In this document: piece after piece, positions 3,213-27,201 of the stretch
Layout: every line of letters begins with the position of its first letter
How positions within the stretch are numbered: position 1 is the stretch's first letter
Assembly: GCF_054482595.1 (NCBI RefSeq)
Contig: NZ_CM137008.1
Direction: 5' to 3' (one strand)
DNA length: 64,000 nt
The notes under the pieces: model-generated
Database searches by the model: none
Told to the model about the DNA's origin: nothing
The model's input: only the letters and a program-made list of their open reading frames with translations
Program-made: the position numbers and the translations under genes

Positions 3213-3575
3213 ATGTTTCTAAACTATTTCGCGTTGGGAGTGCTGATCTTCGTCTTTCTGGTGATTTTTTATGGAATCATCGCGATACATGACATCCCTT
3301 ATCTGATTGCCAAAAAGCGCAATCACCCCCATGCCGACGCTATTCATACGGCGGGCTGGGTGAGCCTGTTTACTCTGCATGTTATCTGGCCGTTTCTGTG
3401 GATCTGGGCGACGCTCTATCAACCGGAGCGTGGCTGGGGTATGCAGTCACATGTTGCGTCGCAGGAGAAAGCAACTGACCCGGAAATCGCCTCACTTTCT
3501 GACCGAATTTCCCGGCTGGAGCATCAACTCGCCGCCGAGAAAAAGACTGACTATTCCACGTTCCCGGAGATCTAA
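3213..3575 (+). CDS. yibI: DUF3302-type small inner-membrane protein
   Basis: 120-aa ORF with an N-terminal hydrophobic segment and a C-terminal coiled-coil-like tail; paralogue of the yiaW-like ORF at 21791; immediately precedes the HlyD-like gene. Confidence 0.8.
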
Positions 3576-3577
3576 TT

Positions 3578-4714
3578 ATGGATCTATTGATTGTTTTAAC
3601 TTACGTGGCGCTGGCGTGGGCGGTCTTTAAAATCTTCCGCATTCCGGTAAATCAGTGGACGCTGGCGACGGCGGCGCTGGGAGGCGTGTTTCTGGTGAGT
3701 GGTTTGATTTTGTTGATGAACTACAACCACCCTTACACTTTTACCGCGCAAAAGGCAGTGATAGCGATCCCTATCACGCCACAGGTGACGGGAATTGTTA
3801 CTGAAGTCACTGACAAGAATAATCAGCTTATTCAAAAGGGCGAGGTGCTTTTTAAGCTCGACCCGGTTCGTTACCAGGCGCGAGTTGACAGACTTCAGGC
3901 TGACCTGATGACGGCGACGCATAATATAAAAACGCTGCGCGCCCAGCTCACTGAAGCGCAGGCCAACACCACCCAGGTTTCAGCGGAGCGCGACCGTCTG
4001 TTTAAAAATTATCAACGTTACCTGAAAGGCAGCCAGGCGGCGGTGAATCCGTTCTCGGAACGTGACATCGACGATGCGCGGCAAAATTTCCTCGCGCAGG
4101 ATGCGTTAGTGAAAGGCTCGGTGGCGGAGCAGGCGCAGATCCAGAGTCAGCTCGACAGTATGGTCAACGGCGAGCAATCGCAGATTGTGAGCTTAAGAGC
4201 GCAACTTACTGAAGCAAAATATAATCTTGAGCAGACTGTCATTCGCGCACCAAGCAATGGCTACGTCACTCAGGTACTGATCCGCCCAGGCACATACGCA
4301 GCTGCCTTGCCGTTGCGTCCGGTGATGGTTTTCATCCCCGAGCAAAAACGGCAAATTGTCGCCCAATTTCGGCAAAACTCGCTGTTACGTCTGAAACCTG
4401 GCGATGATGCGGAAGTGGTGTTTAACGCGCTACCTGGGCAGGTGTTCCACGGCAAACTGACCAGTATTTTACCTGTCGTGCCAGGCGGTTCTTATCAGGC
4501 GCAGGGGGTATTGCAATCATTAACGGTCGTGCCCGGCACGGACGGTGTGCTGGGAACCATTGAACTGGACCCTAACGATGATATCGATGCCTTACCCGAC
4601 GGCATTTACGCCCAGGTGGCAGTTTACTCCGACCATTTCAGCCATGTTTCGGTGATGCGAAAAGTGCTGCTAAGAATGACCAGCTGGATGCATTATCTTT
4701 ATTTGGATCATTGA
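3578..4714 (+). CDS. yibH: HlyD-family membrane-fusion-like protein
   Basis: 378-aa ORF with one N-terminal TM segment and long coiled-coil regions; SD ggaga before the ATG; paralogue of the yiaV-like ORF at 22120. Confidence 0.85.
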
Positions 4715-5173
4715 GGGGGAAGGGGGAGATTATGGAACTTTGCTCCCTGTAAGGACTAATTATTTTTGCATATTATTTCATCGGCTGTGATGATTTTTCG
4801 TTAATATCCATTATGTTAAGAAGTTCGGGATGAGTGTGAACTCATTGGATTTTTTATCCGTCTTGATCTGCCGAAGGATCAGACTATACATTGTCGAGAT
4901 CGCAATGATGATATGAGTTGTTCCTCCTGCGACGGCTCTAATCAAAAAAGAGCAGGAGTGCTTTTCCATCTATTGCGATGATGGCTTTATTATCTGAAGG
5001 ATGACAGTCACATTTAAAAAATATTTAATCTATAGATCACAATGTAGGGTCATGGAATATATGTATACAACTATTTTCTTCTTCACTTTTAATTATCGTG
5101 TTCATTATAAAACCAAGTTAAAAAAACTCCTGGAGAGTGACTTATTAATATATTTTTAAATAAAATTAAGTTA

Positions 5174-5695
5174 TTATTCATCGATGCATTTTATAGAATC
5201 ATCAATGGCCATAATAGTACTATTAACTCTCCACTTTATATTTTTATCATCACTACAAATATTAACTGAATTTATATCAATGATTTTTTTATTCTTATCT
5301 TTTGTTTTATTTACTGTTTCAATGCAATCAGCGGCAAGTTGGAGTGGATTTAGATTTTTCAGATATGGTCTTATGATCTTTCCCTTACTTAATAAATAGC
5401 ATGTATAGGATTCGGAAAGTCCAGCATCTATTTTGTACCTCATTATATTAGATAAGGATGTGAGAAATTCCTTGTTATCATTCGCAGCCATATATGCCAG
5501 TCCGAGTTCAGCCTCTGCGGCCTTACAGGCAAAATAGCTAAGTGAACACGCTTTTCGTCCCTCTTTAGTACTGGCTGATATTAGTGCCCATAATATTGCT
5601 TTGTCTGCCAAATCTAACTCTCTCTGAAATTGTCTTGCAGTAACTGCACTCGCAGAAATAGAGAAAAAAAATACAATTGTTAATAACTTTGCCAT
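5174..5695 (-). CDS. Putative secreted immunity protein for the adjacent orphan Rhs toxin tip (yibG-like by position)
   Basis: 173-aa ORF with a signal-peptide-like N-terminus (MAKLLTIVFFFSISASAVTA); AT-rich; directly downstream of the orphan Rhs C-terminal module. Confidence 0.55.
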   Translation of the reverse strand: MAKLLTIVFFFSISASAVTARQFQRELDLADKAILWALISASTKEGRKACSLSYFACKAAEAELGLAYMAANDNKEFLTSLSNIMRYKIDAGLSESYTCYLLSKGKIIRPYLKNLNPLQLAADCIETVNKTKDKNKKIIDINSVNICSDDKNIKWRVNSTIMAIDDSIKCIDE

Positions 5696-5700
5696 ATTTT

Positions 5701-6594
5701 TTAGTCCGTAACTGTTAATGTGCTATCTGGCTCTGAAAATATTAACTCATTTAATTTTTGCATGTCATTAGATGAACCAGTTATACAACCCTCGGAACAG
5801 AATCGAGGTCCTAAAGACGGACCGAAAGCGTTTAAACAACTATGTGTTAAAAATCCATCACGATTATATGTTTCTGTATTTGCTGACGGTACTAAACGTA
5901 TACCATTAGGTTTTCTATTGGTTGCTCCAGGACCATTAACATTCCAGCTCCATACCCCTTGAGGTATTGGACCTCTATTTTGTAAGTGTGTACAACCAGG
6001 ATTATTTTTACATTGCATATTATTACCATTATTACCAGAGGCGACAGGAATAGTAAGCACATCATAAGAGTTATCATCATTTTGCGTATCTGAAACGCAT
6101 GAAAGCATACTTAAAGTTATGCTGTATAAACAGGTCGCTAATCCCAACGGGTCAATATCAGTTATCGGATTCAACGGATACTGATAAAAATTCCATCCCC
6201 CTTTCAGCCCAATCGGATCCTGAGTGATATATCGCCCCTGCAGCGGGTCATAATAGCGGTGGCGGTTGTAATACAGGCCGGACTCCTCATCATACTGCTG
6301 CCCCGGCAGGCGGATAAGCTGCTGCAGCTGATGCGGGTTCTCTTCATTCAGCAGGTTGCCCCACTCATCGTATTCTGCGCACCATTCTGTAGCACCTTCC
6401 GTGCTGATAAGCGCCAGCGGCAGGCCGCGATGGTCGCAGTGGTACAGGTGGATTTTTCGCGCCGGCGTGTACACCGGGTCCATCTGGTTTTGCATCTGCG
6501 CCACCGTCAGGCCGCACGATGCCAGCCAGCGGCGGCTTTCCTCACTCACCCGGTCAGCCAGGATTTCACTTTCCAGCCGGTCGAGCATCTGCAC
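5701..6594 (-). CDS. Orphan Rhs C-terminal module: truncated core end (through DPxGL) plus variable toxin tip, no native start (yibJ-like by position)
   Basis: ORF contains ...[39 protein letters not shown] followed by a ~145-aa AT-rich tip; homology to the main rhs core stops abruptly near 6595. Confidence 0.75.
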
Positions 6595-6595
6595 C
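6165..6595 (-). repeat. Rhs 3' core repeat, copy 3 (partial)
   Basis: About 430 bp near-identical to 10330-10760 and 8462-8890 (e.g. ccaatcggatcctgagtgatata...gcgggtcataatagcggtggcggttgtaatacaggccggactcctcatcatactgctg). Confidence 0.9.
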
Positions 6596-6635
6596 GTGCC
6601 GGCGGGAATCCCCCACTGTGCATAGGCAACTCACG

Positions 6636-7478
6636 CTATGAACGCTTCAGCTTATCAATAGCGGAAGTTATAATTTCATTGTCATCAAACTTGTACAACA
6701 TAGTATCTAAAACAGGAAGTAGCGTTTTATCACCTAATTCACCCGCAGCTTCAATGATATCATCATAAACAGTATTTTTTTTTAACTCATCGCATAAAAC
6801 AGATAAAACCCTTTTATCTTTTCTGTAGGAAAGTCAGATTATTGCTTCAATACGGACTTCCTCATTTTTATCCTGAAGCATCTCCACAAAATAATCCCTA
6901 ATATCACTATTATCATATTTATTGATATTTATTGCAAATGCGGCCCAGTTTCTGACATCTCCATTTGGATCTTTTAACAGATTAATCAATAGTGGAATTG
7001 TTGCTTTATCATTGATAACAGAAATAGCAAATGCTGTAGCACGTCTGACATTAGTCGATTTATCAAAAGCAGTAATTTGAGATTGTTCTACTATTTTAGG
7101 TGAATAATTTGGGTTTTTCTTGCATCGCTGAGCCGTTGACTCGATTGCCGTAGCTCGAACGCAAGCGCTCTTATCATTCAATGCCATATTGTTCAAAATA
7201 TTAAAAACATTATCTTCGCATTTTTTGCAAATTTTTATTTGCCCGAGTATAAATGCTCCGATATCTCTACGGATATAATTTTTATCAGAGCAGAACTCAA
7301 TTGCCAATCTAACAGCGTCTTGCCCACCTCTTAACTGTAATACTCTGGCAGATGAAATCCTTTTCAAGGAATTGTGATCATCAAGTAAGCGAAATAATTC
7401 ATCATCATTTAGTTTCTTACATTGATTATATAAACCATACTCTTTACTTGCCTTTCTTTTCTGGTATGTATTTGACAT
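6636..7478 (-). pseudogene. yibA: HEAT-repeat protein YibA, interrupted by an in-frame TGA
   Basis: Translation from the MSNTYQKRKASKEYGLYNQCKK start reads to ...EVRIEAII then TGA (6834-6836); the same frame continues LSYRKDKRVLSVLCDELKKNTVYDD...DKLKRS to a TAG at 6636-6638. Confidence 0.7.
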
Positions 7479-7582
7479 TGCAGGAACCTCCACAAAGGCT
7501 ATCTTTTTTTATCGTTTGACTGTCTGGAGTCCTCCACCTACTCTGCCATCAGCGCACACGATGTTTGATTATCCTTACATAC

Positions 7583-7966
7583 TTATTTTCCGTGGCCAAA
7601 ATTCAGAATTCTCCCATCATTTTTGCCTATTTCTATAATAAAAACCCCACCAGCAATTTGGTCTGAGTGAATGGTACCTTCAACAACCCAACTTGTTGTT
7701 AACTCAGTGATTTCGTATGGTTTTTCTTCTTCTGCGGCATCCTGTCCATAACGATTCTTAACATATATCTCAGCTAATTCCAATGCTATAGCTTTATTTT
7801 TAACCAAATTTCTAACGGTATATTTACCTTCACTTTCATACTTGCGCATTATTTTAATATTATTATTACACTGCGCCCATGTGTTGTATGTAAAAACAAA
7901 CAAAGATACAATGACACATTTCCTAAACAATATTTTTTTACATATTACCATGAACTCTGCAGACAT
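7583..7966 (-). CDS. Putative immunity protein for orphan Rhs tip 1 (possibly a lipoprotein or secreted)
   Basis: 127-aa ORF, AT-rich, hydrophobic N-terminus ([24 protein letters not shown]); overlaps the 3' end of the orphan toxin ORF; true start may be the internal Met at 7951. Confidence 0.5.
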
Positions 7967-9407
7967 TAGGTAATCCTTTTCCGTTTGTTATTTCCTTCCC
8001 GTGGTTATCTATTGCTTTAAAATTACCACTGGGCGTACCTAAATAAAATGACTTGATATTGTTATCTTTACTTTTAACTATTTTCTCATCTTTACCTGAA
8101 AATATTTCGTCCCAATATTCTCCATGACTATCTGCACCATGAGTATGATAAGCTGATACTTTCTCAGTACCATTAGGGCAAGGGCTATTGAATGGATATG
8201 ATCCTTTTCTTTCTCCTCGGTTAGGTGCTGTTGAGAAATATCTGCCACTATTATCCTTACATATTAAACCAGCGAACTCTTTATCTTCGCAAATAGATTG
8301 GCTATTTATTTTATTTAAGGCGTCATATGCGGTGCTATCTATAGAATCAAATTTATCTGGACCTATCATAGCGGATAGTGTGCCGCAAAGACCATTAGTA
8401 CATGCCCCCGATTTTGCATCCTCCCACATAGATAAACCCAGGGGGTCGATGTCTGATATCGGATTCAATTGATATCCATACAGGTTCCATCCCCCCTTCA
8501 GCCCAATCGGATCCTGAGTGATATACCTCCCCTGCAGCGGGTCATAATAGCGGTGGCGGTTGTAATACAGGCCGGACTCCTCATCATACTGCTGACCCGG
8601 CAGGCGGATGAGCTGCTGCAGCTGGTGCGGGTTCTCTTCATTCAGCAGGTTGCCCCATTCATCGTATTCTGCGCACCATTCTGTAGCCCCTTCCGTGCTG
8701 ATAAGCGCCAGCGGCAGGCCGCGATGGTCGCAGTGGTACAGGTGGATTTTTCGCGCCGGCGTGTACACCGGGTCCATCTGGTTTTGCATCTGCTCCACCG
8801 TCAGGCCGCACGATGCCAGCCAGCGGCGGCTTTCCTCACTCACCCGGTCAGCCAGGATTTCACTTTCCAGCCGGTCGAGCATCTGCACCAGCACCGGCGG
8901 GAACACCACACTGCCACCGTCTTCGCCGCCGGACTGCTGAAGGGCATCCGCCAGGCTGCGGCGCTGCGTTTTCGCCAGCTCACCGGTGGCAGTTTCGACC
9001 CTGATGAGTGGCGTGAAGCTCCCCGGCTGATAAATCGTCTGGATGCGGCTCCTGTCGTTCTGTATCGTGGTCAGCCGGTCGCCGTCCCAGCCGTACCAGG
9101 TCACTTGCGGTTTCCGTGACAGCGACATCCAGCCCGTCAGGTCCCGTTCACGCCGCCACACCCGTTTTGCCACCCTGCGGCCCAGCGGGTCGTAAAGATA
9201 GCGACTTTCGACCAGCGGCTCTGCATATTGTGTCCGCGTGTAGTGCACCAGCCGGTGCTGACTGTCGTAATGGTACCGGTGGGTGCGCTCATCATCCGTG
9301 CGGATAACCCCTTCCGGGATGAGGTCGGTTTTCTCCGTCAGCCTGCCGTGACGGTCATACCGGTAAAGATAGTGCGCGTCACGGGCGATACGGTTATCCG
9401 GCCACAT
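7938..9407 (-). CDS. Orphan Rhs C-terminal module 1: about 1 kb of core 3' end plus a distinct ~175-aa toxin tip, no native start
   Basis: 489-aa ORF beginning inside core sequence ([18 protein letters not shown]...), includes [27 protein letters not shown] then an AT-rich tip; core homology to the main gene ends near 9480. Confidence 0.75.
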
Positions 9408-9480
9408 GCTGAGGGCGCTGTCCGGGTGCAGCTCCGGGTCGGGCAGGCGGTTACCTGCCGGGTCTGTGGCATACGGGATA
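8462..9480 (-). repeat. Rhs 3' core repeat, copy 2
   Basis: About 1 kb highly similar to 10330-11350 of the main rhs gene. Confidence 0.9.
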
Positions 9481-9524
9481 TCAATGCCCAGGTTACATAT
9501 AATAATAAGAGCAATTAACTTAAT

Positions 9525-9851
9525 TTATTTGTTTATAATGCGCTTACTTAATACAAACCATTGAATATACCCTCCTGACAGAAAATAAAGCCATATTATT
9601 ATCGCCATAATATACTTACTATCAATCCTTACGCCAATAATGTCTGATACAGTCCCTATAAATATTAGAGCAATAAAGAATACTATGCCTGTTGGAAAAC
9701 ATATTACCATCATTCCATAAGACATGAGACTAATTAACTCGCTCACATCACGAGTGGAGTCTAATAGTGAAAGTCTATGCATGGAAAAGAATAGTATTAA
9801 AAGCGATAAAGCCAGCCATATAGCTCTGAATAAAAAAATAATATATTTCAT
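9525..9851 (-). CDS. Putative RhsI immunity protein (small polytopic membrane protein) for the main Rhs tip
   Basis: 108-aa ORF with about three hydrophobic helices; start codon overlaps the rhs stop by 1 nt (TAATG); AT-rich. Confidence 0.6.
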   Translation of the reverse strand: MKYIIFLFRAIWLALSLLILFFSMHRLSLLDSTRDVSELISLMSYGMMVICFPTGIVFFIALIFIGTVSDIIGVRIDSKYIMAIIIWLYFLSGGYIQWFVLSKRIINK

Positions 9852-12800
9852 TACATCACTCCGGTGAATACAAATCTAATAAAACGTCCAATGTTATTTC
9901 CGGAGCACTTCATCTTACATGTTTCTAAAGAATCATTAGACCAGTCTTGGCAGTTTTTAAATAGCCCTAAATTTATAGGTGTGAATATATCAGGCAATAC
10001 AGAATAACGCGGCCTTACCTCTTTAAACTTCCCTTTTAAACAGTTCTCCACACAACTATTATCGGTTTCAACGAGGTCACAACGGCCAGCAGCTTCTTTT
10101 GTATCATTACTTGCTTTACCTGGCCCCCATAGACCATCTCCTTTTGATTCTCCCCGTTGGTCTTGGCCACCACAAGTATAGTCCCCTTTACCATCTGGGA
10201 CACAAAGATATTGATGATAGAACGGATTCCCCCATATATCTGGACCGCTTCTTTCACCAGTTCCGCCCATTGAATGCAGTGGCTTAATGCATTTTAGTGT
10301 TTCTAATCCTAATGGATCTATATTTGAGATCGGATTCAACGGATACTGATAAAAATTCCATCCCCCCTTCAGCCCAATCGGATCCTGAGTGATATACCGC
10401 CCCTGCAGCGGGTCATAATAGCGGTGGCGGTTGTAATACAGGCCGGACTCCTCATCATACTGCTGCCCCGGCAGCCGGATAAGCTGCTGCAGCTGATGCG
10501 GGTTCTCTTCATTCAGCAGGTTGCCCCATTCATCATATTCTGCGCACCACGCTGTTGCCCCTTCCGTGCTGATGAGCGCCAGCGGCAGGCCGCGATGGTC
10601 GCAGTGGTACAGGTGGATTTTTCGCGCCGGCGTGTACACCGGGTCCATCTGGTTTTGCATCTGCTCCACGGTCAGGCCGCACGATGCCAGCCAGCGGCGG
10701 CTTTCCTCACTCACCCGGTCAGCCAGGATTTCACTTTCCAGCCGGTCGAGCATCTGCACCAGCACCGGCGGGAACACCACACTGCCACCGTCTTCGCCGC
10801 CGGACTGCTGAAGCGCATCCGCCAGGCTGCGGCGCTGCGTTCTGGCCAGTTCACCGGTGGCAGTTTCAACTCTGATGAGTGGTGTGAAGCTCCCCGGCTG
10901 ATAAATCGTCTGGATGCGGCTCCTGTCGTTCTGTATCGTGGTCAGCCGGTCGCCGTCCCAGCCGTACCAGGTCACTTGCGGTTTCCGTGACAGCGACATC
11001 CAGCCCGTCAGGTCCCGTTCACGTCGCCATACCCGTTTTGCCACCCTGCGGCCCAGCGGGTCGTAAAGATAGCGACTTTCGACCAGCGGCTCTGCATATT
11101 GTGTCCGCGTGTAGTGCACCAGCCGGTGCTGACTGTCGTAATGGTACCGGTGGGTGCGCTCATCATCCGTACGGATACCCCCTTCCGGGATGAGGTCGGT
11201 TTTCTCCGTCAGCCTGCCGTAACGGTCATACCGGTAAAGATAGTGCGCGTCACGGGCGATACGGTTATCCGGCCACATGCTGAGGGTGCTGTCCGGGTGC
11301 AGCTCCGGGTCGGGCAGGCGGTTGCCCGCCGGGTCCGTGGCATACGGGATGCGGATATCCAGATTCGCTGCGGTGGTGTGAACGCCGGTCAGCCTGCCGG
11401 TGGTGCTGTAGCTGTAACTCCGGGTCTGGCGCGGGCTGCTGATGCGGATGAGTTCGCCGTTGTCGTTCCAGGTGTAATCGCGGTCATACTGCAGGCTGTT
11501 CAGGTGCTGACGCTGTAACTGCCCGGCAGGGGTGTAAGCGGTGGTGAGTTCATAACGACCGAAGCTGCGCAGCGTTTCCCGGTGCAGGCGGTCGCGGGTG
11601 AAATCCACCAGCGGTGTGTCGCCGAGCTTCATGCCTGCCAGCCAGCCGCTGCCGTAGGTCAGCCATTCCACGGCGGGCAGGCTGTCCGGTATACAGCGGT
11701 TCGCCAGTCCCTGCGCGTTGTACGCATGTCTGGTCTCATGCTGCCAGAGCAGTGCTTCCGTCTGCGGGTGATGCACCGTCTGGCGCTCACCGGTCAGGCG
11801 GCCTTTCTCATCATACCTGTAATGCACCGCTACCCGGTGCCCTTCGCTGATATGGCTGATGTCTGTCAGCCAGCCACGTTCGTCATACCGCCACCGCTCT
11901 GCGGTTTCACCCTTCACGGTGCGGTGCGTGAGGCGGTCTGCTTCGTCATAGTGCCAGTGGGTGACCAGACCCTCATCCTCGCTGCGGATAAGTTTGCCGG
12001 TCAGGTCGTGGTGATAACGCTGTGTGCGGCCGTCAAAGCCGGTTTCCTGTATCAGCCGGTCAAGTACATCGTAACGGAAGGTGGTGTGGCTGCCGTTTTC
12101 ACTGGTCAGGCGGATGACCCGTCCGGCAGCATCGTATTCCATACTGCGCGTCAGCCCGCCCTGCGTGGTACGGACGGCCTTTCCCCACGCATCGTACTGT
12201 GTCCCGTTTCTGCTGCCGTCCGGGGCAATGACGGCGGTCAGGTCACCGGCGATGTTGTATTCATACCGCGTTTCATGGCCCTGCGTGTCTTTCACGGCAA
12301 TTAACTGTCCACGGCTGTCGTATGCGCGGTACTGGCTCAGCCCTTCCTCGCGGTGCACCGCCGTCATCTGCCCGAAGCGGTCATGGTCATAACGGGTCTG
12401 GTAGCCGGAACAGTCGGTGAAGCTCAGCAACTGGCCGTAACGGCTCCACGTCATGGTTTTCCGGCTGCCGGTGGCATCGTCCGTTGCGCAGGGGAGGTCA
12501 CTGTGTGGATTATCATAACGGTAGCGGGTGATATCGCCGTCAGGGGCGGTTTCCTGAATCAGACGGCCGGATTCATCATATTCCCGGCGCAATTCCAGCC
12601 CGTCAGGCCCGGTGGCTGACGTTAACTGGTTGTGGTGGTTATAGTAAAACGCCGATGCCCTGCCATCCGGCGTGGTTATGCGCGTGATGAGGCCCGTCAC
12701 CACATCCGGGCTGTACTCTGTTGTCCTGCCTGCGGCATCCGTCTGTGCCCTGAGCCTGCCCACGGCGTCAAACTGACTCTGCGTGACGCTGCCGTCCGCG

Positions 12801-14035
12801 TGTTCCTTTTTCACCACCCGCTTCAGCCCGGCTTCGCCCTGCGTGTGCAGCACTTCACGGCGGTCCAGGCTGTCGGTGATGGTGATGCGGTCTTTCTCAT
12901 ACTGATACGTGTAGCTTAAGCCTGCCGGGTTTAGCTGTTCTGTCACCCGCCCGTCGCTGTCGTAACGGTAACGGATTTCCGGCCGGCCCGTGTGACGGTG
13001 CGCCACCATCCGGCCCCGGTATTTATCATCGTAAGTAAAGCTGCGCACCTGTGTATTGCTGCGGTCATACACTGCCGCCAGTTCGCCGCGCGGCGTCCAG
13101 CCATAGCGCACCAGCGGCGCGGCAGGTAAATTCTCCGGGTATTCCGGGTCGTGCGTCAGCCACACGGCAGACAGACGGATGCCGTTGTCCCGGCCATATT
13201 CGGTGTAACCCGGCAGGGTATCAGGAAAAGCGGACGGTTCCGTCCCGCCGGAAATGGCCTGCTGCCGGGCTTCTTCTGCCTGCTGCGCCTGCGTGGTCAG
13301 TACCAGCCGGAAGTGACGCCCGGCACCATCCGTCACGCCGGTGATTTCGCCGCTGAATTCACCGGCGGCTTCGCGGTGGAACGTCTGTGTGCGCCCGAAG
13401 CGGTCCACCAGCCCGGTCAGTACCCGGTACGGCGGCAGCGGCGCAGGCAGCACCTCATCCGCTTCCGGCACCCGCTCACACCACCACCACGGCCCCTGCG
13501 GACTGTTTGTCGCCAGATAACGATGCGGACTTAAGCGGAGTTCTTCCGGCAGCGCCTGCCAGAGTGCGGCCAGCCGGTGACCTTCATCCAGTTTCGCCAC
13601 GCCGCCGCGCACCAGCCACAGTGACTCGCTGCGGCTGTAACCGTCCTCACCGGGAAACAGGTGCTCAAAATACAGGCTTCTGCCGCCGTTATCACTGAGT
13701 ATCAGTGTGTTATCGCGCAGCTGTAAGCGGATATCCGCAGGCATTTTCCAGCCGGGGCCGAGGCTCCCCACCGGCGCGGGCGTTTTTGTCCGGTAACTGC
13801 TGTAGGTGCGGGAGAGGATGAACGGCAGCGGGGCGGGCAGGGCGATGTCGGTTTCACCGGGAAGGACCTTTGCACCGAGCAGGGGATTGACCGGATGGCC
13901 GGACGTCACTCCGCCGGGGCACCCCGAACAGGCCACACCGGTTGGGGCACCGATGCGCACCCCGGCTGAACCCTGAACAATGCTACCGCCATACTGCGTC
14001 ATGTCGCCCTGACGCGCCGCCGGTTTTCCGCTCAT
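9851..14035 (-). CDS. rhsA: Rhs-family polymorphic toxin with N-terminal PAAR-like domain, YD-repeat core and variable C-terminal tip
   Basis: 1394-aa ORF; N-terminus [42 protein letters not shown] (PAAR-like); many YD repeats; DPLGL hinge followed by a ~150-aa Cys-rich AT-rich tip; sits next to yibF as rhsA does in K-12. Confidence 0.9.
10330..11350 (-). repeat. Rhs 3' core repeat, copy 1 (within the main rhs gene)
   Basis: Source copy of the about 1-kb segment duplicated in the two orphan modules. Confidence 0.9.
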
Positions 14036-14263
14036 CTGCTCATCCTTGTTTTATCGAGTTATTTGTCTGCTTCCAGGCAAAACCCTACAGATTTATAAGA
14101 AAGCCTTAAGTGAGATATCCATCAGATAGAAACAATTAGGAAAATATTTATATCACCATGATAAATATGTGATTTATTTGGAAGTAACAAACCATCAACA
14201 TTTTCTGCCCTTTTTCCCATCACCAGGCCATACTGATATTTTTCCTCGCACAAAGGACTCGGC

Positions 14264-14872
14264 ATGAAACTCGTCGGTAGCTACACCAGCCCGTTTGTAC
14301 GCAAACTTTCTATTCTGTTGTTAGAAAAGGGCATAACTTTCGAATTTATTAATGAACTGCCCTATAACGCGGACAACGGCGTGGCGCAATTTAACCCGTT
14401 AGGAAAAGTGCCGGTGCTGGTGACCGAAGAGGGCGAATGCTGGTTTGATTCGCCGATCATCGCTGAATATATTGAATTAATGAATGTCGCTCCGGCGATG
14501 TTACCGCGCGATCCGCTGGAGTCGTTGCGGGTGCGCAAAATTGAGGCGCTGGCGGATGGCATTATGGATGCCGGGCTGGTATCGGTGCGTGAACAGGCGC
14601 GTCCAGCGGCGCAGCAGTCTGAAGATGAATTGTTACGCCAGCGGGAGAAAATCAACCGTAGTCTGGATGTGCTGGAAGGATATCTGGTCGATGGCACACT
14701 TAAAACCGATACGGTCAATCTGGCGACTATCGCCATTGCCTGTGCCGTCGGATATCTCAATTTCCGCCGCGTTGCGCCAGGCTGGTGTGTCGACCGCCCA
14801 CACTTAGTCAAACTGGTCGAAAACCTGTTTAGCCGCGAAAGTTTTGCTCGCACCGAACCGCCAAAGGCTTGA
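14264..14872 (+). CDS. yibF: Glutathione S-transferase family protein
   Basis: 202-aa [26 protein letters not shown]..., GST N-terminal thioredoxin-like fold; conserved neighbour of rhsA and selA. Confidence 0.9.
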
Positions 14873-14969
14873 TGCGCGATATGTCCTCCTGACCCATCTC
14901 ACGTTACAATCCGTGGTTATGTTAAACGCCCTTCTCCGTGTGAGAGGGCCTTGATCAGCCAGGTTTCCT

Positions 14970-16361
14970 ATGACAACCGAAACGCGTTCCCTCTATAGTC
15001 AACTTCCGGCTATTGATCGCTTATTGCGCGATAGCTCCTTCCTTTCTTTGCGTGATACTTATGGTCACACCCGCGTGGTGGAATTGTTGCGTCAGATGCT
15101 TGACGAAGCGCGAGAAGTGATTCGTGACAGCCAGATGCTGCCCGCGTGGTGTGAAAACTGGGCGCAAGAAGTCGATGCCCGGTTGACGAAAGAGGCGCAG
15201 AGCGCGCTGCGTCCGGTGATCAACCTGACGGGAACCGTGCTGCATACCAATCTTGGGCGAGCTTTACAGGCGGAAGCTGCGGTGGAAGCCGTTGCGCAGG
15301 CTATGCGTTCGCCAGTGACCCTCGAGTACGATTTGGACGACGCCGGACGCGGACATCGCGATCGGGCGCTGGCGCAGCTGCTGTGCCGCATTACCGGCGC
15401 GGAAGATGCCTGTATCGTTAATAACAATGCGGCGGCGGTGTTATTGATGTTGGCGGCCACTGCCAGCGGGAAAGAGGTGGTGGTTTCTCGCGGCGAACTG
15501 GTGGAGATTGGCGGCGCGTTTCGTATTCCCGATGTTATGCGTCAGGCAGGCTGCACCCTACACGAAGTAGGGACCACCAACCGCACGCACGCGAATGATT
15601 ATCGTCAGGCGGTGAATGAAAATACCGCACTGTTGATGAAAGTACATACCAGTAACTACAGCATTCAGGGGTTCACCAAAGCGATAGACGAAGCTGAACT
15701 GGTGGCGCTCGGCAAAGAGCTGGATGTTCCCGTAGTGACTGATTTAGGCAGTGGCTCGCTGGTCGATCTTAGCCAGTACGGTTTGCCGAAAGAGCCAATG
15801 CCGCAGGAGTTGATTGCGGCGGGCGTCAGTCTGGTGAGTTTCTCCGGCGACAAGTTGTTAGGCGGGCCGCAGGCAGGAATTATCGTTGGTAAAAAAGAGA
15901 TGATCGCCCGCCTGCAAAGCCACCCGCTGAAACGTGCATTACGCGCGGATAAAATGACCCTCGCGGCGTTGGAAGCCACGTTGCGTCTTTATTTACACCC
16001 TGAAGCTCTGAGTGAAAAATTACCGACCCTGCGCCTGCTTACCCGCAGCGCAGAGGTCATTCAAATCCAGGCACAACGTTTACAGGCTCCCCTTGCCGCA
16101 CATTACGGCGCGGAGTTTGCGGTACAGGTTATGCCATGTCTTTCGCAGATTGGCAGTGGTTCGCTGCCGGTTGATCGCCTGCCGAGCGCGGCATTAACGT
16201 TTACACCCCATGATGGACGCGGTAGCCACCTTGAGTCATTAGCCGCCCGCTGGCGTGAATTGCCAGTGCCGGTGATTGGTCGTATTTATGACGGACGATT
16301 GTGGCTGGATTTACGCTGCCTTGAAGATGAGCAACGGTTTTTGGAGATGTTGTTGAAATGA
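14970..16361 (+). CDS. selA: L-seryl-tRNA(Sec) selenium transferase (selenocysteine synthase)
   Basis: 463-aa [24 protein letters not shown]...; stop overlaps the selB ATG (ATGA). Confidence 0.95.
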
Positions 16362-18202
16362 TTATTGCGACTGCCGGACACGTTGACCACGGCAAAACAA
16401 CCTTATTGCAGGCGATTACTGGCGTAAATGCCGATCGTCTGCCGGAAGAAAAAAAGCGCGGCATGACCATCGATCTCGGCTATGCCTACTGGCCGCAGCC
16501 GGATGGTCGTGTGCCTGGTTTTATCGACGTACCCGGTCATGAAAAGTTTCTTTCCAACATGCTGGCGGGCGTTGGTGGTATCGATCACGCGCTGTTGGTG
16601 GTGGCGTGCGATGACGGCGTGATGGCACAGACCCGTGAGCATCTGGCGATTTTGCAGCTGACCGGTAACCCGATGCTGACAGTGGCGCTGACCAAAGCCG
16701 ATCGCGTGGACGAAGCGCGTGTTAATGAGGTTGAACGCCAGGTAAAGGAGGTGCTGCAGGAATACGGTTTTGCTGAGGCAAAACTGTTTATCACCGCAGC
16801 AACCGAAGGTCGGGGAATTGATGCCCTGCGCGAGCATCTGCTTCAGTTACCAGAACGTGAACACGCCAGCCAACATAGTTTCCGCCTCGCGATCGACCGC
16901 GCATTTACCGTAAAAGGTGCCGGGCTGGTCGTCACCGGTACGGCGTTAAGCGGGGAAGTGAAGGTAGGCGATTCACTATGGCTGACTGGTGTAAATAAAC
17001 CGATGCGCGTGCGTGCGCTGCATGCGCAAAACCAGCCAACAGAAACCGCTCATGCCGGGCAGCGTATCGCGCTTAACATCGCGGGGGATGCGGAAAAAGA
17101 GCAGATTAACCGTGGCGACTGGCTGCTTGCCGATGTGCCGCCAGAGCCGTTCACGCGGGTGATTGTCGAGCTTCAAACCCATACGCCGCTGACCCAGTGG
17201 CAGCCGCTGCATATTCACCACGCCGCCAGCCACGTTACGGGACGCGTTTCGCTGCTGGAAGATAACCTTGCCGAGCTGGTGTTCGACACGCCGCTGCGGC
17301 TGGCGGATAACGATCGCTTAGTGTTGCGCGATATCTCGGCCCGCAATACGCTGGCGGGGGCGCGTGTGGTGATGCTTAACCCGCCGCGTCGCGGTAAACG
17401 TAAGCCGGAATATCTGCAATGGCTGGCGTCTCTTGCACGGGCGCAGAGCGATGCCGATGCGTTATCTGTTCATCTGGAACGCGGAGCGGTTAACCTTGCG
17501 GATTTCGCCTGGGCGCGCCAGCTCAACGGCGAAGGGATGCGCGAACTGCTGCAACAGCCGGGCTATATTCAGGCTGGTTATAGCTTGTTGAATGCGCCAG
17601 TTGCCGCCCGCTGGCAGCGGAAAATTCTTGACACATTAGCGACTTATCATGAGCAACATCGCGATGAACCTGGTCCTGGGCGCGAACGTCTGCGACGTAT
17701 GGCGTTGCCAATGGAAGATGAAGCGCTGGTACTGCTGCTGATTGAAAAAATGCGCGAAAGCGGCGACATCCACAGCCATCACGGCTGGCTGCATCTGCCA
17801 GATCACAAAGCGGGCTTCAGCGAAGAGCAGCAGGCCATCTGGCATAAAGCAGAGCCGCTGTTTGGTGACGAACCGTGGTGGGTGCGTGACCTGGCAAAAG
17901 AGACGGGAACCGACGAGCAGGCAATGCGTCTGACGCTACGCCAGGCGGCCCAACAGGGGATAATTACCGCGATCGTCAAAGATCGTTATTACCGTAACGA
18001 TCGGATTGTCGAGTTTGCCAATATGATCCGCGATCTCGATCAGGAATGTGGTTCAACCTGCGCGGCGGATTTCCGCGATCGCTTAGGGGTTGGGCGAAAA
18101 CTGGCGATTCAAATCCTGGAATATTTTGACCGCATTGGCTTTACGCGGCGTCGCGGAAATGATCATTTATTGCGCGACGCATTATTATTTCCGGAAAAAT
18201 AA
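16358..18202 (+). CDS. selB: Selenocysteine-specific translation elongation factor
   Basis: 614-aa [25 protein letters not shown]... (GTPase G1 motif), long C-terminal winged-helix extension. Confidence 0.95.
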
Positions 18203-18260
18203 GGAAATGATTAATTAAGTTTTAAAATAAATTAATACAAAATTCTTATGATTTTAAAAA

Positions 18261-18296
18261 AAGCACATTGTTTAATGAATACAATGTGCTTTTTAT
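18261..18296 (+). terminator. Rho-independent terminator downstream of selB
   Basis: Hairpin agcacattg...caatgtgct followed by a T-run. Confidence 0.6.
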
Positions 18297-18391
18297 TAGA
18301 TTAATTTTGCTAAACAATAATACTGATCATATTTTCGAATGAAAATCCTCAGTAAGCTGCCCGCCCTTTTTTACACTTTCAGGAGTGTGTT

Positions 18392-19543
18392 ATGGCAGCT
18401 TCAACCTTTTTTATTCCTTCTGTGAATGTCATCGGCGCTGATTCATTGGCTGATGCAATGAATATGATGGCAGAATATGGGTTTCGCCGTACATTGATTG
18501 TCACTGACAGTATGTTAACGAAATTAGGTATGGCGGGCGATGTGCAAAAAGCACTGGAAGAACGCAATATTTTTAGCATTATTTATGATGGCACCCAACC
18601 TAACCCCACCACGGAAAACGTCGCCGCAGGTTTGAAATTACTTAAAGAAAATAATTGCGATAGCGTGATCTCCTTAGGCGGTGGTTCTCCGCACGACTGC
18701 GCAAAAGGTATTGCGCTGGTGGCAGCCAATGGCGGCGATATTCGCGATTACGAAGGCGTTGACCGCTCTGCAAAACCGCAGCTGCCGATGATCGCCATCA
18801 ATACCACGGCGGGTACGGCCTCTGAAATGACCCGTTTCTGCATCATCACTGACGAAGCGCGTCATATCAAAATGGCGATTGTTGATAAACATGTCACTCC
18901 GTTGCTTTCTGTCAATGACTCCTCTCTGATGATTGGTATGCCGAAGTCACTGACCGCCGCAACGGGTATGGATGCCTTAACGCACGCTATCGAAGCGTAT
19001 GTTTCTATTGCCGCTACGCCGATCACTGACGCTTGCGCACTGAAAGCCGTGACCATGATTGCCGAAAACCTGCCGTTAGCCGTTGAAGATGGCAGTAATG
19101 CGAAAGCGCGTGAAGCAATGGCTTATGCCCAGTTCCTCGCCGGTATGGCGTTCAATAATGCTTCTCTGGGTTATGTTCATGCGATGGCGCACCAGCTGGG
19201 CGGTTTCTACAACCTGCCACACGGTGTATGTAACGCCGTACTGCTGCCGCATGTTCAGGTATTCAACAGCAAAGTCGCCGCTGCACGTCTGCGTGACTGT
19301 GCCGCTGCAATGGGAGTGAACGTGACAGGTAAAAACGACGCGGAAGGTGCTGAAGCCTGCATTAACGCCATCCGTGAACTGGCGAAGAAAGTGGATATCC
19401 CGGCAGGCCTGCGCGACCTGAATGTGAAAGAAGAAGATTTCGCGGTTCTGGCGACTAATGCCCTGAAAGATGCCTGTGGCTTTACTAACCCGATTCAGGC
19501 AACTCACGAAGAAATTGTGGCGATTTATCGCGCCGCAATGTAA
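18392..19543 (+). CDS. yiaY: Iron-containing (group III) alcohol dehydrogenase
   Basis: 383-aa [26 protein letters not shown]..., Fe-ADH family; SD aggag before the ATG; synteny with aldB. Confidence 0.9.
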
Positions 19544-19707
19544 TCATCATTCCAACAACGGCTGGCAAATTGTCAGCCGCTTTTTCAACTATCTCTGTAA
19601 TCCTTGCCCGTAAATTCGTGATAGCTGTCGTAAAGCTGTTACCGACTGGCGAAGATTTCGCCAGTCACGTCTACCCTTGTTATACCTCACACCGCAAGGA
19701 GACGATC

Positions 19708-21246
19708 ATGACCAACAATCCCCCTTCAGCACGTGTTCAGCCCGGCGAGTATGGTTTTCCTCTTAAGTTAAAAGCACGCTACGACAACTTTATTGGCGGC
19801 GAATGGGTAGCCCCTGCCGACGGCGAGTATTACCAGAACCTGACGCCGGTGACCGGGCAGCTGCTGTGCGAAGTGGCGTCTTCGGGCAAACGAGACATCG
19901 ATCTGGCGCTGGATGCTGCGCACAAAGTGAAAGATAAATGGGCGCACACCTCGGTGCAGGATCGTGCGGCGATTCTGTTTAAGATTGCCGATCGAATGGA
20001 ACAAAACCTCGAGCTGTTAGCGACAGCTGAAACCTGGGATAACGGCAAACCCATTCGCGAAACCAGTGCTGCGGATGTACCGCTGGCGATTGACCATTTC
20101 CGCTATTTCGCCTCGTGTATTCGGGCGCAGGAAGGTGGGATCAGTGAAGTTGATAGCGAAACCGTGGCCTATCATTTCCATGAACCGTTAGGCGTGGTGG
20201 GGCAGATTATCCCGTGGAACTTCCCGCTGCTGATGGCGAGCTGGAAAATGGCTCCCGCGCTGGCGGCGGGCAACTGTGTGGTGCTGAAACCCGCACGTCT
20301 TACCCCGCTTTCTGTACTGCTGCTAATGGAAATCGTCGGTGATTTACTGCCGCCGGGCGTGGTGAACGTGGTCAACGGTGCAGGTGGGGAAATTGGCGAA
20401 TATCTGGCGACCTCGAAACGCATCGCCAAAGTGGCGTTTACCGGCTCAACGGAAGTGGGCCAACAAATTATGCAATACGCAACGCAAAACATTATTCCGG
20501 TGACGCTGGAGCTGGGCGGTAAGTCGCCAAATATCTTCTTTGCTGATGTGATGGATGAAGAAGATGCCTTTTTCGATAAAGCGCTGGAAGGCTTTGCACT
20601 GTTTGCCTTTAACCAGGGCGAAGTTTGCACCTGTCCGAGTCGTGCCTTAGTGCAGGAGTCAATCTACGAACGCTTTATGGAACGCGCCATCCGCCGTGTC
20701 GAAAGCATTCGCAGCGGTAACCCACTCGACAGCGTGACGCAAATGGGTGCGCAGGTTTCTCACGGGCAACTGGAAACCATCCTCAACTACATTGATATCG
20801 GTAAAAAAGAGGGCGCAGACGTGCTCACCGGCGGGCGGCGCAAGCTGCTGGAAGGCGAACTGAAAGACGGCTACTACCTTGAACCGACGATTCTGTTTGG
20901 TCAGAACAATATGCGGGTGTTCCAGGAAGAGATTTTTGGCCCGGTGCTGGCGGTGACCACCTTCAAAACGATGGAAGAAGCGCTGGAGCTGGCGAACGAT
21001 ACGCAATATGGCCTGGGCGCAGGTGTCTGGAGCCGCAACGGTAATCTGGCCTATAAGATGGGGCGCGGCATTCAGGCCGGGCGCGTGTGGACCAACTGTT
21101 ATCACGCTTACCCGGCACATGCGGCGTTTGGCGGCTACAAACAATCAGGCATTGGACGCGAAACCCACAAGATGATGCTGGAGCATTACCAGCAAACCAA
21201 GTGCCTGCTGGTGAGCTACTCAGATAAACCGTTGGGGCTGTTCTGA
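19708..21246 (+). CDS. aldB: Aldehyde dehydrogenase B (NADP-dependent)
   Basis: Start placed at [17 protein letters not shown] after SD aaggag; 512 aa; ALDH catalytic-Cys region ([12 protein letters not shown]-like); the ORF-track upstream extension is unlikely. Confidence 0.9.
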
Positions 21247-21277
21247 TGTAAGAAGCTGGTCGCATCGGGTATTCATT

Positions 21278-21360
21278 GCCTGATGCGACGCTTACGCGTC
21301 TTATCATGCCTACGGGGACCTGACCGTAGGCCGGATAAGGCGTACACGCCGCATCCGGCA
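21278..21360. repeat. REP/BIME element downstream of aldB
   Basis: gcctgatgcgacgcttacgcgtcttatcatgcctacgg and ccgtaggccggataaggcgtacacgccgcatccggc, inverted REP units. Confidence 0.8.
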
Positions 21361-21790
21361 TAAACAAAGCGCACGTTGTTACAATTTACGTTTTAAACCT
21401 ACGTGTGCAATAACCCAGACTACGCCAACAAAAGTGCGTTTCTGGGGCGTGTTTTGCCAGGAGTTTAATCTCGCGTTTCGATGGTGAGCGGGCAAACCAG
21501 ACCGTAAATCACCATTGGTATTCCGAGGACAATCAGCAATAAACGGTAGATTATTGAAGGTTTAATACGCTTAATCTGCATTGTGGATGTTTTACGGTTT
21601 TTAATCATAAATTTGGCCAATAGTTCCATTATTTCAATATGATAAGCCTCGACCTGTTAAAAAGCCAGGCAGCACACTTCAGGAAGTATATAAAAAACAA
21701 TATGTCGTTATATAAATAAGGAAATTGCACTGCATCATGGCATTTCATAATATGCGTTAATTGTTCTTTTTTATATTCTCTGAGGGAAAT

Positions 21791-22114
21791 ATGTTCCTGG
21801 ACTATTTTGCACTGGGAGTGCTTATTTTTGTATTTCTGGTGATATTCTATGGGATTATTATTTTACATGATATTCCCTACCTGATTGCTAAAAAACGTAA
21901 TCATCCTCATGCCGACGCCATTCATGTTGCAGGTTGGGTGAGTCTTTTTACGTTACATGTTATCTGGCCGTTTTTGTGGATTTGGGCCACGCTTTACCGC
22001 CCGGAGCGGGGATGGGGAATGCAAAGCCATGATTCATCCGTTATGCAACTGCAACAGCGCATTGCCGGGCTGGAGAAACAGCTCGCCGACATCAAATCCT
22101 CTTCTGCCGAGTAA
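21791..22114 (+). CDS. yiaW: DUF3302-type small inner-membrane protein (paralogue of yibI)
   Basis: ATG at 21791 after SD gaggga (the track ORF starts at an upstream TTG); [23 protein letters not shown]...; about 80 percent nucleotide identity to yibI over the 5' region. Confidence 0.85.
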
Positions 22115-22119
22115 TACTT

Positions 22120-23256
22120 ATGGATTTACTGATTATTTTGACCTATGTGGCTTTTGCATGGGCAATGTTTAAGATCTTCAAAATTCCCGTAAATAAATGG
22201 ACCATTCCCACAGCGGCCTTGGGTGGAATATTTATTGTCAGCGGTCTAATTCTGTTAATGAACTATAACCATCCGTATACCTTTAAAGCGCAAAAAGCGG
22301 TTATTTCTATTCCTGTTGTCCCACAGGTGACTGGTGTGGTGATTGAAGTGACGGATAAGAAAAATACGCTGATTAAAAAAGGTGAAGTGCTATTTCGACT
22401 GGACCCGACGCGTTATCAGGCGCGGGTGGATCGGCTGATGGCGGATATCGTTACCGCAGAACATAAACAGCGGGCGTTGGGCGCAGAGTTAGATGAGATG
22501 GTGGCGAATACTCAGCAGGCAAAGGCCACGCGGGATAAATTCGCTAAAGAGTATCAGCGTTACGCACGCGGCAGCCAGGCGAAAGTAAACCCGTTTTCAG
22601 AACGCGATATCGATGTGGCGCGGCAAAATTATCTGGCGCAGGAAGCCTCCGTAAAGTCATCGGCAGCGGAACAAAAACAGATCCAGAGCCAGCTGGATAG
22701 CCTGGTGTTGGGTGAACATTCTCAAATCGCCAGCCTGAAAGCGCAGCTCGCGGAAGCAAAATATAACCTTGAGCAGACGATAGTGCGTGCGCCGAGCGAT
22801 GGTTATGTGACCCAGGTACTGATTCGTCCGGGTACCTATGCCGCGTCGCTGCCGCTACGTCCGGTGATGGTGTTTATACCCGATCAGAAACGACAAATCG
22901 TGGCGCAGTTCCGTCAGAACTCCTTGCTGCGCCTGGCTCCCGGCGATGATGCGGAAGTGGTATTTAACGCTCTGCCAGGCAAAGTGTTCAGCGGTAAGCT
23001 GGCAGCCATTAGTCCAGCTGTTCCCGGCGGAGCTTATCAGTCGACCGGCACCTTACAGACGTTAAACACAGCGCCGGGTTCAGATGGCGTTATCGCGACC
23101 ATTGAACTGAATGAGCACACTGATTTGAGCGCTTTACCAGACGGTATTTACGCCCAGGTGGCGGTCTACTCTGATCATTTCAGCCATGTCTCGGTGATGC
23201 GCAAAGTGTTATTACGTATGACCAGCTGGGTGCATTACCTTTATCTCGATCATTAA
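22120..23256 (+). CDS. yiaV: HlyD-family membrane-fusion-like protein (paralogue of yibH)
   Basis: 378-aa ORF collinear with yibH over its entire length. Confidence 0.85.
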
Positions 23257-25091: not shown

Positions 25092-25099
25092 TTCACCGG

Positions 25100-27191: not shown

Positions 27192-27201
27192 CTTGTGCTC
27201 C

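Follow-up and report, generated by a model that had tools for sequence, protein, structure and literature searches.

The paralogous yibIH and yiaWV modules of Escherichia coli: two deeply diverged DUF3302–adaptor gene pairs with no adjoining pump gene

Genes at the locus

The window analysed here is a stretch of 64,000 nucleotides from contig NZ_CM137008.1 of the assembly GCF_054482595.1; the host is E. coli, and the window is 100% identical to strain XH990. Two modules of the same build, yibI–yibH and yiaW–yiaV, lie in it (Table 1), each consisting of a gene for a small DUF3302 protein followed by a gene for a periplasmic adaptor. All four are named and already annotated E. coli genes with no function assigned, and for this reason the paralogy of the two pairs is not a discovery. 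Both yibH and yibI are counted among the uncharacterised y-ome genes (PMC11551758), and YiaV is listed as TCDB 8.A.1.1.4, an uncharacterised MFP (PMC10971958).

Table 1. Features of the window, with coordinates counted from its first nucleotide
Feature	Coordinates	Strand	Product or content	Basis
yibI–yibH module	3213..4714	+		ORF coordinates
yibI	3213..3575	+	DUF3302 protein, 120 aa	RefSeq; Pfam PF11742; hydropathy
yibH	3578..4714	+	HlyD/MFP-family periplasmic adaptor, 378 aa	Pfam CusB_dom_1, HlyD_D23, HlyD_3
Rhs region	5174..14035	-	Imm57 immunity gene, Rhs fragments, yibA, yhhH, ybfB, main 1394-aa rhs	annotation
Conserved core	14264..21246	+	yibF, selA, selB, yiaY, aldB	annotation; synteny in 52 loci
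REP-bounded block, 3.8 kb	21314..25137		47-aa ORF, yiaW, yiaV, yiaU, yiaT	
yiaW–yiaV module	21791..23256	+		ORF coordinates
yiaW	21791..22114	+	DUF3302 protein, 107 aa	RefSeq; Pfam PF11742
yiaV	22120..23256	+	HlyD/MFP-family adaptor, 378 aa	Pfam, AF2 model, Foldseek
yiaU (LpsR)	23253..24227	-	LysR regulator	Pfam HTH_1 + LysR_substrate, annotation
yiaT	24351..25091	+	MipA/OmpV-family outer-membrane protein	Pfam MipA 177.7 bits, annotation

The ORFs of yibI, yibH and yiaV were found at the positions, on the strand and with the lengths that an initial annotation of the window had assigned to them. Its length of 117 aa for YiaW has to be corrected: counted from that annotation's own ATG at 21791, the protein has 107 aa, as in RefSeq, and 117 aa corresponds to a mechanical ORF opened by a TTG at 21761. 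A GAGGG Shine-Dalgarno sequence lies 5' of the ATG, and the equivalent of an MFLxYF start, common to all DUF3302 family members compared, supports the same codon. In each module the two genes are coupled, with 2 nt between the yibI stop and the yibH start and 5 nt between the yiaW stop and the yiaV start; a translationally coupled two-gene operon is the best explanation of each. Both DUF3302 proteins are canonical members of PF11742, scoring 140 bits (YibI) and 146.7 bits (YiaW) against a cutoff of 32 and covering model positions 1–76 of 77.

An Rfam scan of positions 1–26000 returned no structured RNA at the gathering score, and promoter and terminator scans were uninformative, giving counts near the shuffled expectation. 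Membership of the modules in a defence system was ruled out, with zero matches of the four module proteins to PADLOC anti-phage models.

In this strain the modules are 17,076 bp apart, and about 9.5 kb of the interval is a strain-variable Rhs region that is missing between yibH and yibF in UTI89, in strain E07 and at the loci L018 and L019. The spacing of about 17 kb reported in the initial annotation is thus correct for this strain but, because of the Rhs insertion, does not hold as a general figure. The segment yibF–selAB is kept in 5425 of the 5426 complete E. coli genomes, among which no natural deletion between the modules was seen. The longest exact run common to both modules is 20 bp. 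These two observations agree with the earlier view that deletion by recombination is unlikely.

Extent and age of the similarity

In BLASTP comparisons, YibI and YiaW share 85 of 113 residues (75%, E 2e-62), and YibH and YiaV share 291 of 378 (77%) in an ungapped alignment with an E value of 0.0. Global alignment of one module with the other gives a nucleotide identity of 69%, distributed unevenly: it reaches 74–82% in the first ~180 nt, which bears out the value of about 80% proposed earlier for the 5' ends, and 78–86% in the last ~150 nt, and falls to 43–52% where the C-terminal tail of DUF3302 and a portion of the coiled-coil hairpin are encoded. The two modules are collinear from end to end, and the order and orientation of both genes agree, as expected of a paralogous segmental duplication. 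Since the identity profile spans both genes, the similarity is full-length and not confined to short motifs. The repeat does not extend past the coding regions, the best local matches between the flanks being 19–26 nt long and chance-like.

Between the copies, 90 of 137 four-fold sites differ, and dS is not computable owing to synonymous saturation. Synonymous differences are also even along the modules, affecting 35–68% of identical-residue codons in each segment compared. Even differences together with saturated four-fold sites rule out that the ends owe their higher identity to recent gene conversion. Saturated sites, unrelated flanks and the short longest exact run all indicate an old split with no sign of recent conversion, and the ancient divergence suggested by the initial annotation is well founded. 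Purifying selection on either copy is strong (omega 0.01–0.07).

Distribution and neighbouring genes

The syntenic copy, yibIH, is widespread and belongs to the E. coli core (5406 of 5426 genomes), and yiaWV turned up in no genera but Escherichia and Citrobacter, in a locus sample that is biased towards YiaV-like peptides. The pair as such is a conserved two-gene unit that reaches from Proteobacteria to a Planctomycete. Within E. coli, yiaWV does not belong to the stable core: the 3.8-kb yiaWVUT block is present in ~70% of complete genomes and absent from ~30%, including UTI89, and strain E07 has ~33 bp in its place. In this block yiaU is convergent with yiaV, with an overlap of 4 nt between the stop regions, and the overlap of the two transcripts is listed in PMC12288877. 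YiaU was rejected as a candidate regulator of yiaWV, as the sole study found gives yiaT and the waa LPS genes as the genes under its control, and not yiaWV (PMC9068703).

We sampled ~13 unrelated gene contexts for the neighbours of the pair. No adjacent pump gene (RND, ABC, MFS or PET) was found beside it in E. coli or in any of these contexts, and the statement of the initial annotation that the adaptor lacks an obvious cognate transporter holds at this scale. The pump-less pair occurs in Enterobacterales, Roseiconus, a 7-Mb genome, Aeromonas, Bradyrhizobium, Ferrimonas and a gamma symbiont, as well as in metagenome contigs and on a Pantoea megaplasmid. In Ferrimonas, in the gamma symbiont and at the loci L068 and L070, the starts of the paired genes overlap or abut. 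In one lineage, a gene for an OEP (TolC-like) outer-membrane channel is located 12 nt upstream of the pair, and the neighbours on the Pantoea plasmid are genes for a PqiB-like protein and YahO and the arn genes. As far as gene neighbourhoods go, the pair is consistent with a "self-contained" module.

Protein features

The AF2 model of YiaV (pLDDT 72.5, low over residues 300–321) has the fold of a membrane-fusion adaptor. Its Foldseek matches include EmrA, MacA and AcrA, the best being EmrA in EmrAB-TolC (8zar/8zal, E 4.5e-21, TM 0.62), and a sequence search of the PDB also retrieved EmrA, at 1e-11. A lipoyl (barrel-sandwich) domain, supported by Pfam Biotin_lipoyl_2 and HlyD_D23, is split by an alpha-hairpin, with strands 53–94 and 221–232 around helices 97–152 and 161–218. 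C-terminal to it lies a beta-barrel (strands 250–350; Pfam HlyD_3 and HlyD_D23). The inner-membrane anchor consists of two hydrophobic helices (2–19 and 28–50), not one, and is kept across phyla; a C-terminal amphipathic helix is conserved as well. Conservation within the adaptor is highest in these membrane and C-terminal helices, where contact with a membrane partner would be expected. The hairpin has ~120 residues in enterics, about half of that at the loci L055, L063 and L065, and is longer in variants of 438–446 aa. A profile search for distant adaptors returned mostly Enterobacterales and added little diversity.

DUF3302 proteins have two hydrophobic helices, an acidic N-terminus, a conserved K/R/His-rich loop (P..IA..R.HP..DA.....W, with 3–4 K/R) and a variable coiled-coil C-terminal tail. 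The predicted topology places the N-terminus outside, the loop in the cytoplasm and the tail in the periplasm. Variants at the loci L068 and L070 carry an additional N-terminal helix after an Arg-rich sequence. In an AF2 model of a fused YiaW-linker-YiaV, a weak test whose output did not include contacts, pLDDT was 50–62 for YiaW and 60–68 for the adaptor helices, versus 64–72 for the adaptor alone; confidence in the membrane parts did not rise.

Discussion

Among known systems, the YiaV/YibH-type adaptor finds its best match, by sequence as well as by structure, in EmrA of EmrAB-TolC. Like EmrA, it is anchored in the membrane at its N-terminus, contains a lipoyl domain, a long alpha-hairpin and a beta-barrel, and has no membrane-proximal domain. 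However, identity is ~20%, and YibH and YiaV score 111–113 bits with the NCBIfam EmrA/EmrK model (TIGR00998), far under its cutoff of 390.8. YiaV and YibH also differ from EmrA in having two N-terminal helices, the conserved C-terminal amphipathic helix and a DUF3302 protein as upstream partner, and no emrB-like pump gene adjoins them. MdtN of mdtNOP (NF007785; 111 against a cutoff of 376) and AaeA (NF007850; 62–75 against 400) are among the other nearest NCBIfam models, and their scores are likewise far below the equivalog cutoffs. In the aaeXAB and ydhIJK operons, a gene for a small 2-TM protein is followed by an MFP gene and then by one for a PET/FUSC pump. The order of small 2-TM protein and MFP is the same in our pair, while yibIH and yiaWV have no third gene for a pump. 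To our knowledge, these are the only membrane-fusion-protein genes of E. coli K-12 without an adjacent pump.

Such features lead us to favour, tentatively, a reading in which the pair makes an EmrA-like, envelope-spanning adaptor complex with DUF3302 as its inner-membrane partner, and in which the ancestral copy is yibIH, syntenic and part of the core, and yiaWV is a deeply diverged second one; as a whole, this is the best explanation we can offer. The adaptor, with its lipoyl domain, long alpha-hairpin, beta-barrel, two N-terminal membrane helices and C-terminal amphipathic helix, would join DUF3302 in one complex anchored in the inner membrane. It may form an oligomeric tube with DUF3302 at the base and, by analogy with EmrA, could reach an outer-membrane channel, putatively TolC in E. 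coli and, in some taxa, an OEP protein of its own; the OEP gene next to the pair in one lineage is indirect evidence for such contact. A candidate substrate might then be moved across the envelope with no canonical pump encoded alongside. Some observations sit uneasily with this mechanism: the membrane helices of the adaptor carry Gly and aromatic packing motifs and not an obvious polar pathway, a hairpin of such varied length is hard to reconcile with a uniform tip-to-tip docking geometry, and the fused AF2 model, weak as a test, brought no higher confidence in the membrane parts.

As to the origin of the second copy, the Escherichia/Citrobacter ancestor may have gained yiaWV horizontally as a divergent copy, instead of duplicating yibIH in situ; we regard this as possible, if somewhat doubtful. 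In an NJ tree, YiaV branches outside a group formed by YibH and the Yersiniaceae copies, in spite of its narrow distribution, and relative rates are equal against the true outgroups Aeromonas and Ferrimonas (15 versus 16 unique changes). Moreover, the yiaWV block is dispensable and REP-bounded, and Pantoea, Rhizobium and Vibrio have DUF3302 modules on megaplasmids. On the other hand, the same orientation of the copies and a distance of only 6–7 kb where the Rhs region is lacking (locus L045) suit a local duplication, and the GC content and GC3 of yiaWV are ordinary for the host. Loss of the block is demonstrably frequent, so many independent losses are plausible, and the locus sample is biased, as noted above. 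The tree and the relative-rate tests point to a deep split that fits both duplication with losses and acquisition.

The function can also be read differently. The pair might serve, as an adaptor sub-complex, a pump whose gene lies elsewhere (for instance an orphan transporter of the MFS, ABC or FUSC/PET type), with DUF3302 as an accessory subunit whose role resembles that of the small proteins found with other pumps. Every solved MFP that matches the model works with a separate inner-membrane transporter, the nearest NCBIfam models describe adaptors that belong to MFS or PET pumps, and in E. coli tolC itself sits apart from the genes of TolC partners. Against this, the absence of an adjoining pump from ~13 contexts across phyla is unusual for MFPs, and DUF3302 was ruled out as a relative of AaeX/DUF1656 (hhalign probability 0.2%, with an AaeX query confirmed as DUF1656 at 72 bits); a pump in trans is unlikely in our opinion. 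Bolder is the supposition that the system is autonomous, with a ring built from the helices of the adaptor and of DUF3302 serving as the inner-membrane component that feeds a TolC-type channel with no canonical pump at all; we hold this to be quite improbable. Finally, the module might be no conduit but an envelope-structural or stress module, such as a tether, scaffold or modulator of the outer membrane or peptidoglycan, with yiaWV functionally tied to yiaT and yiaU. The gain or loss of yiaWV, yiaU and yiaT as one block, the control of yiaT and waa by YiaU, the envelope-protein neighbours on the Pantoea plasmid and the variable hairpin speak for such a role, as does a rise in Ca2+-mediated transformation efficiency upon yiaW deletion, as it is cited in PMC12844161. 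Nevertheless, Lelliottia and Enterobacter have yiaU–yiaT without yiaWV, yibIH has no neighbours of the yiaU/yiaT type, the YiaU study names no yiaWV target, and the adaptor folds like those of transport systems; we find a structural role very unlikely.

For the envelope-spanning adaptor complex that we favour, there is also a phenotypic hint. Urine induces the yibI promoter, and in urine a UTI89 delta-yibI mutant had a competitive index of 0.33 (PMC5404293); UTI89 naturally lacks yiaWV. Against it, yibH serves as a neutral integration site (PMC5852967), and in the one assay reported, insertion in yiaW alone made no difference to phagosome LAMP1 association in macrophages (PMC5495878). Together with the dispensability of yiaWV in 30% of E. 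coli, this indicates a function that is conditional at best.

The problem has become more tractable, as it is the pair that is conserved as a unit from phylum to phylum, purifying selection acts strongly on both copies, and natural single-copy strains are at hand in the ~30% of E. coli, uropathogenic UTI89 among them, that carry yibIH alone. If the autonomous reading were true, the pair would represent a new architectural class of tripartite system extending from Proteobacteria to Planctomycetes. Should the pair work without a pump, the repertoire of envelope-spanning machines would be wider; otherwise, yibIH and yiaWV would be ordinary old paralogs.

Identity and age of the two modules

The window is E. 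coli chromosome (strain XH990 is 100% identical), in which RefSeq names the two gene pairs yibI-yibH and yiaW-yiaV and calls their products 'DUF3302 domain-containing protein' and 'HlyD family secretion protein'. The Rhs region, yibF, selA, selB, yiaY and aldB separate them in the RefSeq annotation. All four ORFs lie on the + strand, with the coordinates of the initial annotation. YibI and YiaW share 85 of 113 residues (75%, E 2e-62), YibH and YiaV are 77% identical across all 378 residues without a gap. The DNA is 69% identical overall; the figure is 74-82% over the 5' end of the first gene, reaches 86% where the second one ends, and drops to 43-52% in the DUF3302 tail and part of the hairpin. 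Because these identities run along both genes, the similarity is full-length and collinear, as was proposed for the same-strand pairs along with about 80% DNA identity at their 5' ends, and is not confined to short motifs; it is almost certain which genes these are and that they are paralogous. As for the sizes first given (120/117 and 378/378 aa), the ORF coordinates, the 120 and the 378/378 hold, but YiaW has 107 aa from its start at 21791, the figure of 117 belonging to a TTG ORF starting at 21761.

Features of the window that bear on the two modules
Feature	Position	Strand	Description
yibI-yibH	3213-4714	+	module between mtlA and yibF
Rhs region	5174-14035		yibH-yibF interval; Imm57 immunity gene, Rhs fragments, 1394-aa rhs gene (PGAP label rhsC)
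REP elements	21270-21360		adjoin 47-aa ORF
yiaWV block (3.8 kb)	21314-25137		REP sequence, 47-aa ORF, yiaW, yiaV, yiaU, yiaT
47-aa hypothetical ORF	21465-21608	-	annotated; MIKNRKTSTMQIKRIKPSIIYRLLLIVLGIPMVIYGLVCPLTIETRD; one hydrophobic stretch; between aldB and yiaW
yiaW-yiaV	21791-23256	+	module between aldB and yiaU
GH127 glycoside hydrolase, MFS transporter, AraC regulator cassette	25221-29643	-, -, +	672, 466 and 300 aa; aligns at 97% with E. coli E07

The split was also held to be ancient, and this is well borne out: 90 of the 137 four-fold sites common to the modules differ, dS is not computable, and no similarity was found between their flanks, upstream or downstream. Among identical-residue codons, the differing fraction is alike in every segment of the alignment. 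Both copies are under strong purifying selection (omega 0.01-0.07 against their orthologues). Deletion by recombination is unlikely, as first supposed, since the longest exact run common to both modules (20 bp) falls below the roughly 23-27 bp of exact identity from which RecA-dependent exchange in E. coli usually becomes efficient; such a deletion would also take out yibF-selAB, kept in 5425 of 5426 complete E. coli genomes.

Distribution and origin

We scanned one genome per species and sorted the resulting 52 loci by tblastn of neighbouring genes, a sample biased by search peptides taken from YiaV. In these loci, yibIH occupied the mtlA-yibF site in Escherichia, Citrobacter, Kluyvera, Raoultella, Lelliottia, Enterobacter, Trabulsiella, Atlantibacter and Pseudescherichia, and yiaWV the aldB-yiaU site only in Escherichia and Citrobacter; in Lelliottia and Enterobacter, aldB directly adjoins yiaU-yiaT. 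Named high-identity YiaW clusters all belonged to Escherichia, Citrobacter or Scandinavium. In the NJ tree, all YibH orthologues and the Rahnella, Serratia and Edaphovirga copies formed one clade, with YiaV outside. Relative-rate tests gave equal rates with Aeromonas/Ferrimonas outgroups (15 versus 16 unique changes) and an excess of YiaV-unique changes with the Yersiniaceae copies as outgroup, so the split predates the divergence of that family. The yiaWV pair may have arisen by duplication followed by many losses, or a divergent copy may have been acquired.

Variation within E. coli

Complete E. coli genomes matched yibIH in 5406 of 5426 cases and yiaWV in only 3804. About 30% lack the yiaWV block, among them E07, where some 33 bp stand in its place, and UTI89 of phylogroup B2; REP-like sequence lies at both junctions of the block. 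At the same junction, the GH127-MFS-AraC cassette is a second presence/absence polymorphism, since the window and E07 carry it and UTI89 does not, araD there directly adjoining aldB. The spacing of about 17 kb first noted holds for this strain, but is due to the Rhs region, which is missing in E. coli E69, SCPM-O-B-8794, E07 and UTI89, where yibF lies within ~70 nt of yibH; in Citrobacter Cu233, the modules are 6.4 kb apart. A Fic-family gene lies between yiaY and aldB in E07 (12006-13301 of locus L066) and UTI89 (11170-12465 of L072), and the window has none. The ends of the convergent yiaV and yiaU overlap by 4 nt (23253-23256), and PMC12288877 includes these two genes in its list of transcript overlaps ('excludons') from RNA-seq.

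The conserved pair and its possible function

DUF3302 proteins formed 881 clusters at 50% identity (E <= 0.001). The contexts covered Roseiconus (Planctomycetota), Aeromonas, Ferrimonas, a gamma symbiont, a 7-Mb genome, Bradyrhizobium, several metagenome contigs and a Pantoea megaplasmid. In every readable context, DUF3302 was directly followed by an adaptor of the YibH/YiaV subtype; the pair is a unit conserved from Proteobacteria to a planctomycete. The adaptor was visibly broken in some apparently error-ridden contigs and in Bradyrhizobium, where it is frameshifted in L062 (7477-8661) and cut to a 179-aa ORF in L061 (7001-8660), with IS elements near; these two loci may represent module decay. 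By tblastn, DUF3302 occurs on 78 plasmid records (Pantoea, Rhizobium, Vibrio, Pseudoalteromonas). On the non-mobilizable Pantoea agglomerans plasmid pPagL15_2 (~180 kb; L073, 4754-9010), a PqiB-like gene and yahO flank a DUF3302-HlyD pair with 79% identity to YiaW, and arnT, arnE and arnF are close by. Three metagenome contigs (L067, L068, L070) place the pair beside a DUF3141-phosphate acetyltransferase-acetate kinase cluster, and the JGI contig of P0235 has a SecA-like ORF (584 aa) directly upstream of the pair. A 457-bp, low-coverage contig of a Terrisporobacter mayombei (Clostridia) assembly encodes the last 105 YiaV residues at 99% identity, most likely E. coli contamination.

YibI and YiaW, the DUF3302 proteins, combine a strongly hydrophobic helix and a weakly hydrophobic one with a nearly invariant loop (P..IA..R.HP..DA.....W) and a variable coiled-coil tail. 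The positive-inside rule and variants with an extra N-terminal membrane helix, seen in L068 and L070, suggest a topology with N-terminus out, loop in and tail out. YibH and YiaV are MFP-family adaptors, which would share this hairpin arrangement. Among NCBIfam models, EmrA/EmrK, MdtN and AaeA come closest to them, each scoring far below cutoff, and the nearest solved structure by sequence is EmrA, also the best structural match (TM 0.62; EmrAB-TolC pump) to an AF2 model (pLDDT 72.5) with two N-terminal helices, a lipoyl domain, a ~120-residue hairpin, a beta-barrel and a C-terminal helix. Conservation across the compared adaptors is strongest in the two membrane helices and in the C-terminal helix (VxRKVLLRMxSWxNYLF), and the hairpins differ more than two-fold in length. 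Some adaptor variants have 438 and 446 aa, and Pfam domain positions in the variant P0427 point to a longer hairpin.

The best-supported reading of the mechanism as a whole, which we hold tentatively, is that the adaptor forms an EmrA-like complex with DUF3302 as its dedicated inner-membrane partner, and that this complex would work with an outer-membrane channel on a substrate; in one lineage, an OEP (TolC-like) gene lies 12 nt upstream of the pair. No canonical transporter gene adjoined the pair in any of these contexts, in line with the early remark that the HlyD-like partner lacks an obvious cognate transporter. The adaptor pair might instead partner an unlinked pump, which we consider rather unlikely, and a non-transport envelope role of the module seems improbable.

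The module was first described as uncharacterised, and yibH and yibI (PMC11551758) as well as yiaV (TCDB 8.A.1.1.4; PMC10971958) are indeed so listed. Urine induces the yibI promoter, and in UTI89 delta-yibI lowered adhesion and gave a competitive index of 0.33 in urine (PMC5404293). Macrophage-evolved clones acquired an IS1 insertion in yiaW; a yiaW insertion by itself left phagosome LAMP1 association unchanged, the only assay reported for it (PMC5495878). Deletion of yiaW is reported, in work that PMC12844161 cites, to raise Ca2+-mediated transformation efficiency. The yibH gene has served as a neutral integration site (PMC5852967), and yiaT and waa genes are under YiaU (LpsR) control (PMC9068703).

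Overall, the finding is real, but the genes were already named and annotated; what makes it worth attention is an orphan adaptor family whose function is unsolved, together with the naturally single-copy strains that have now been identified.
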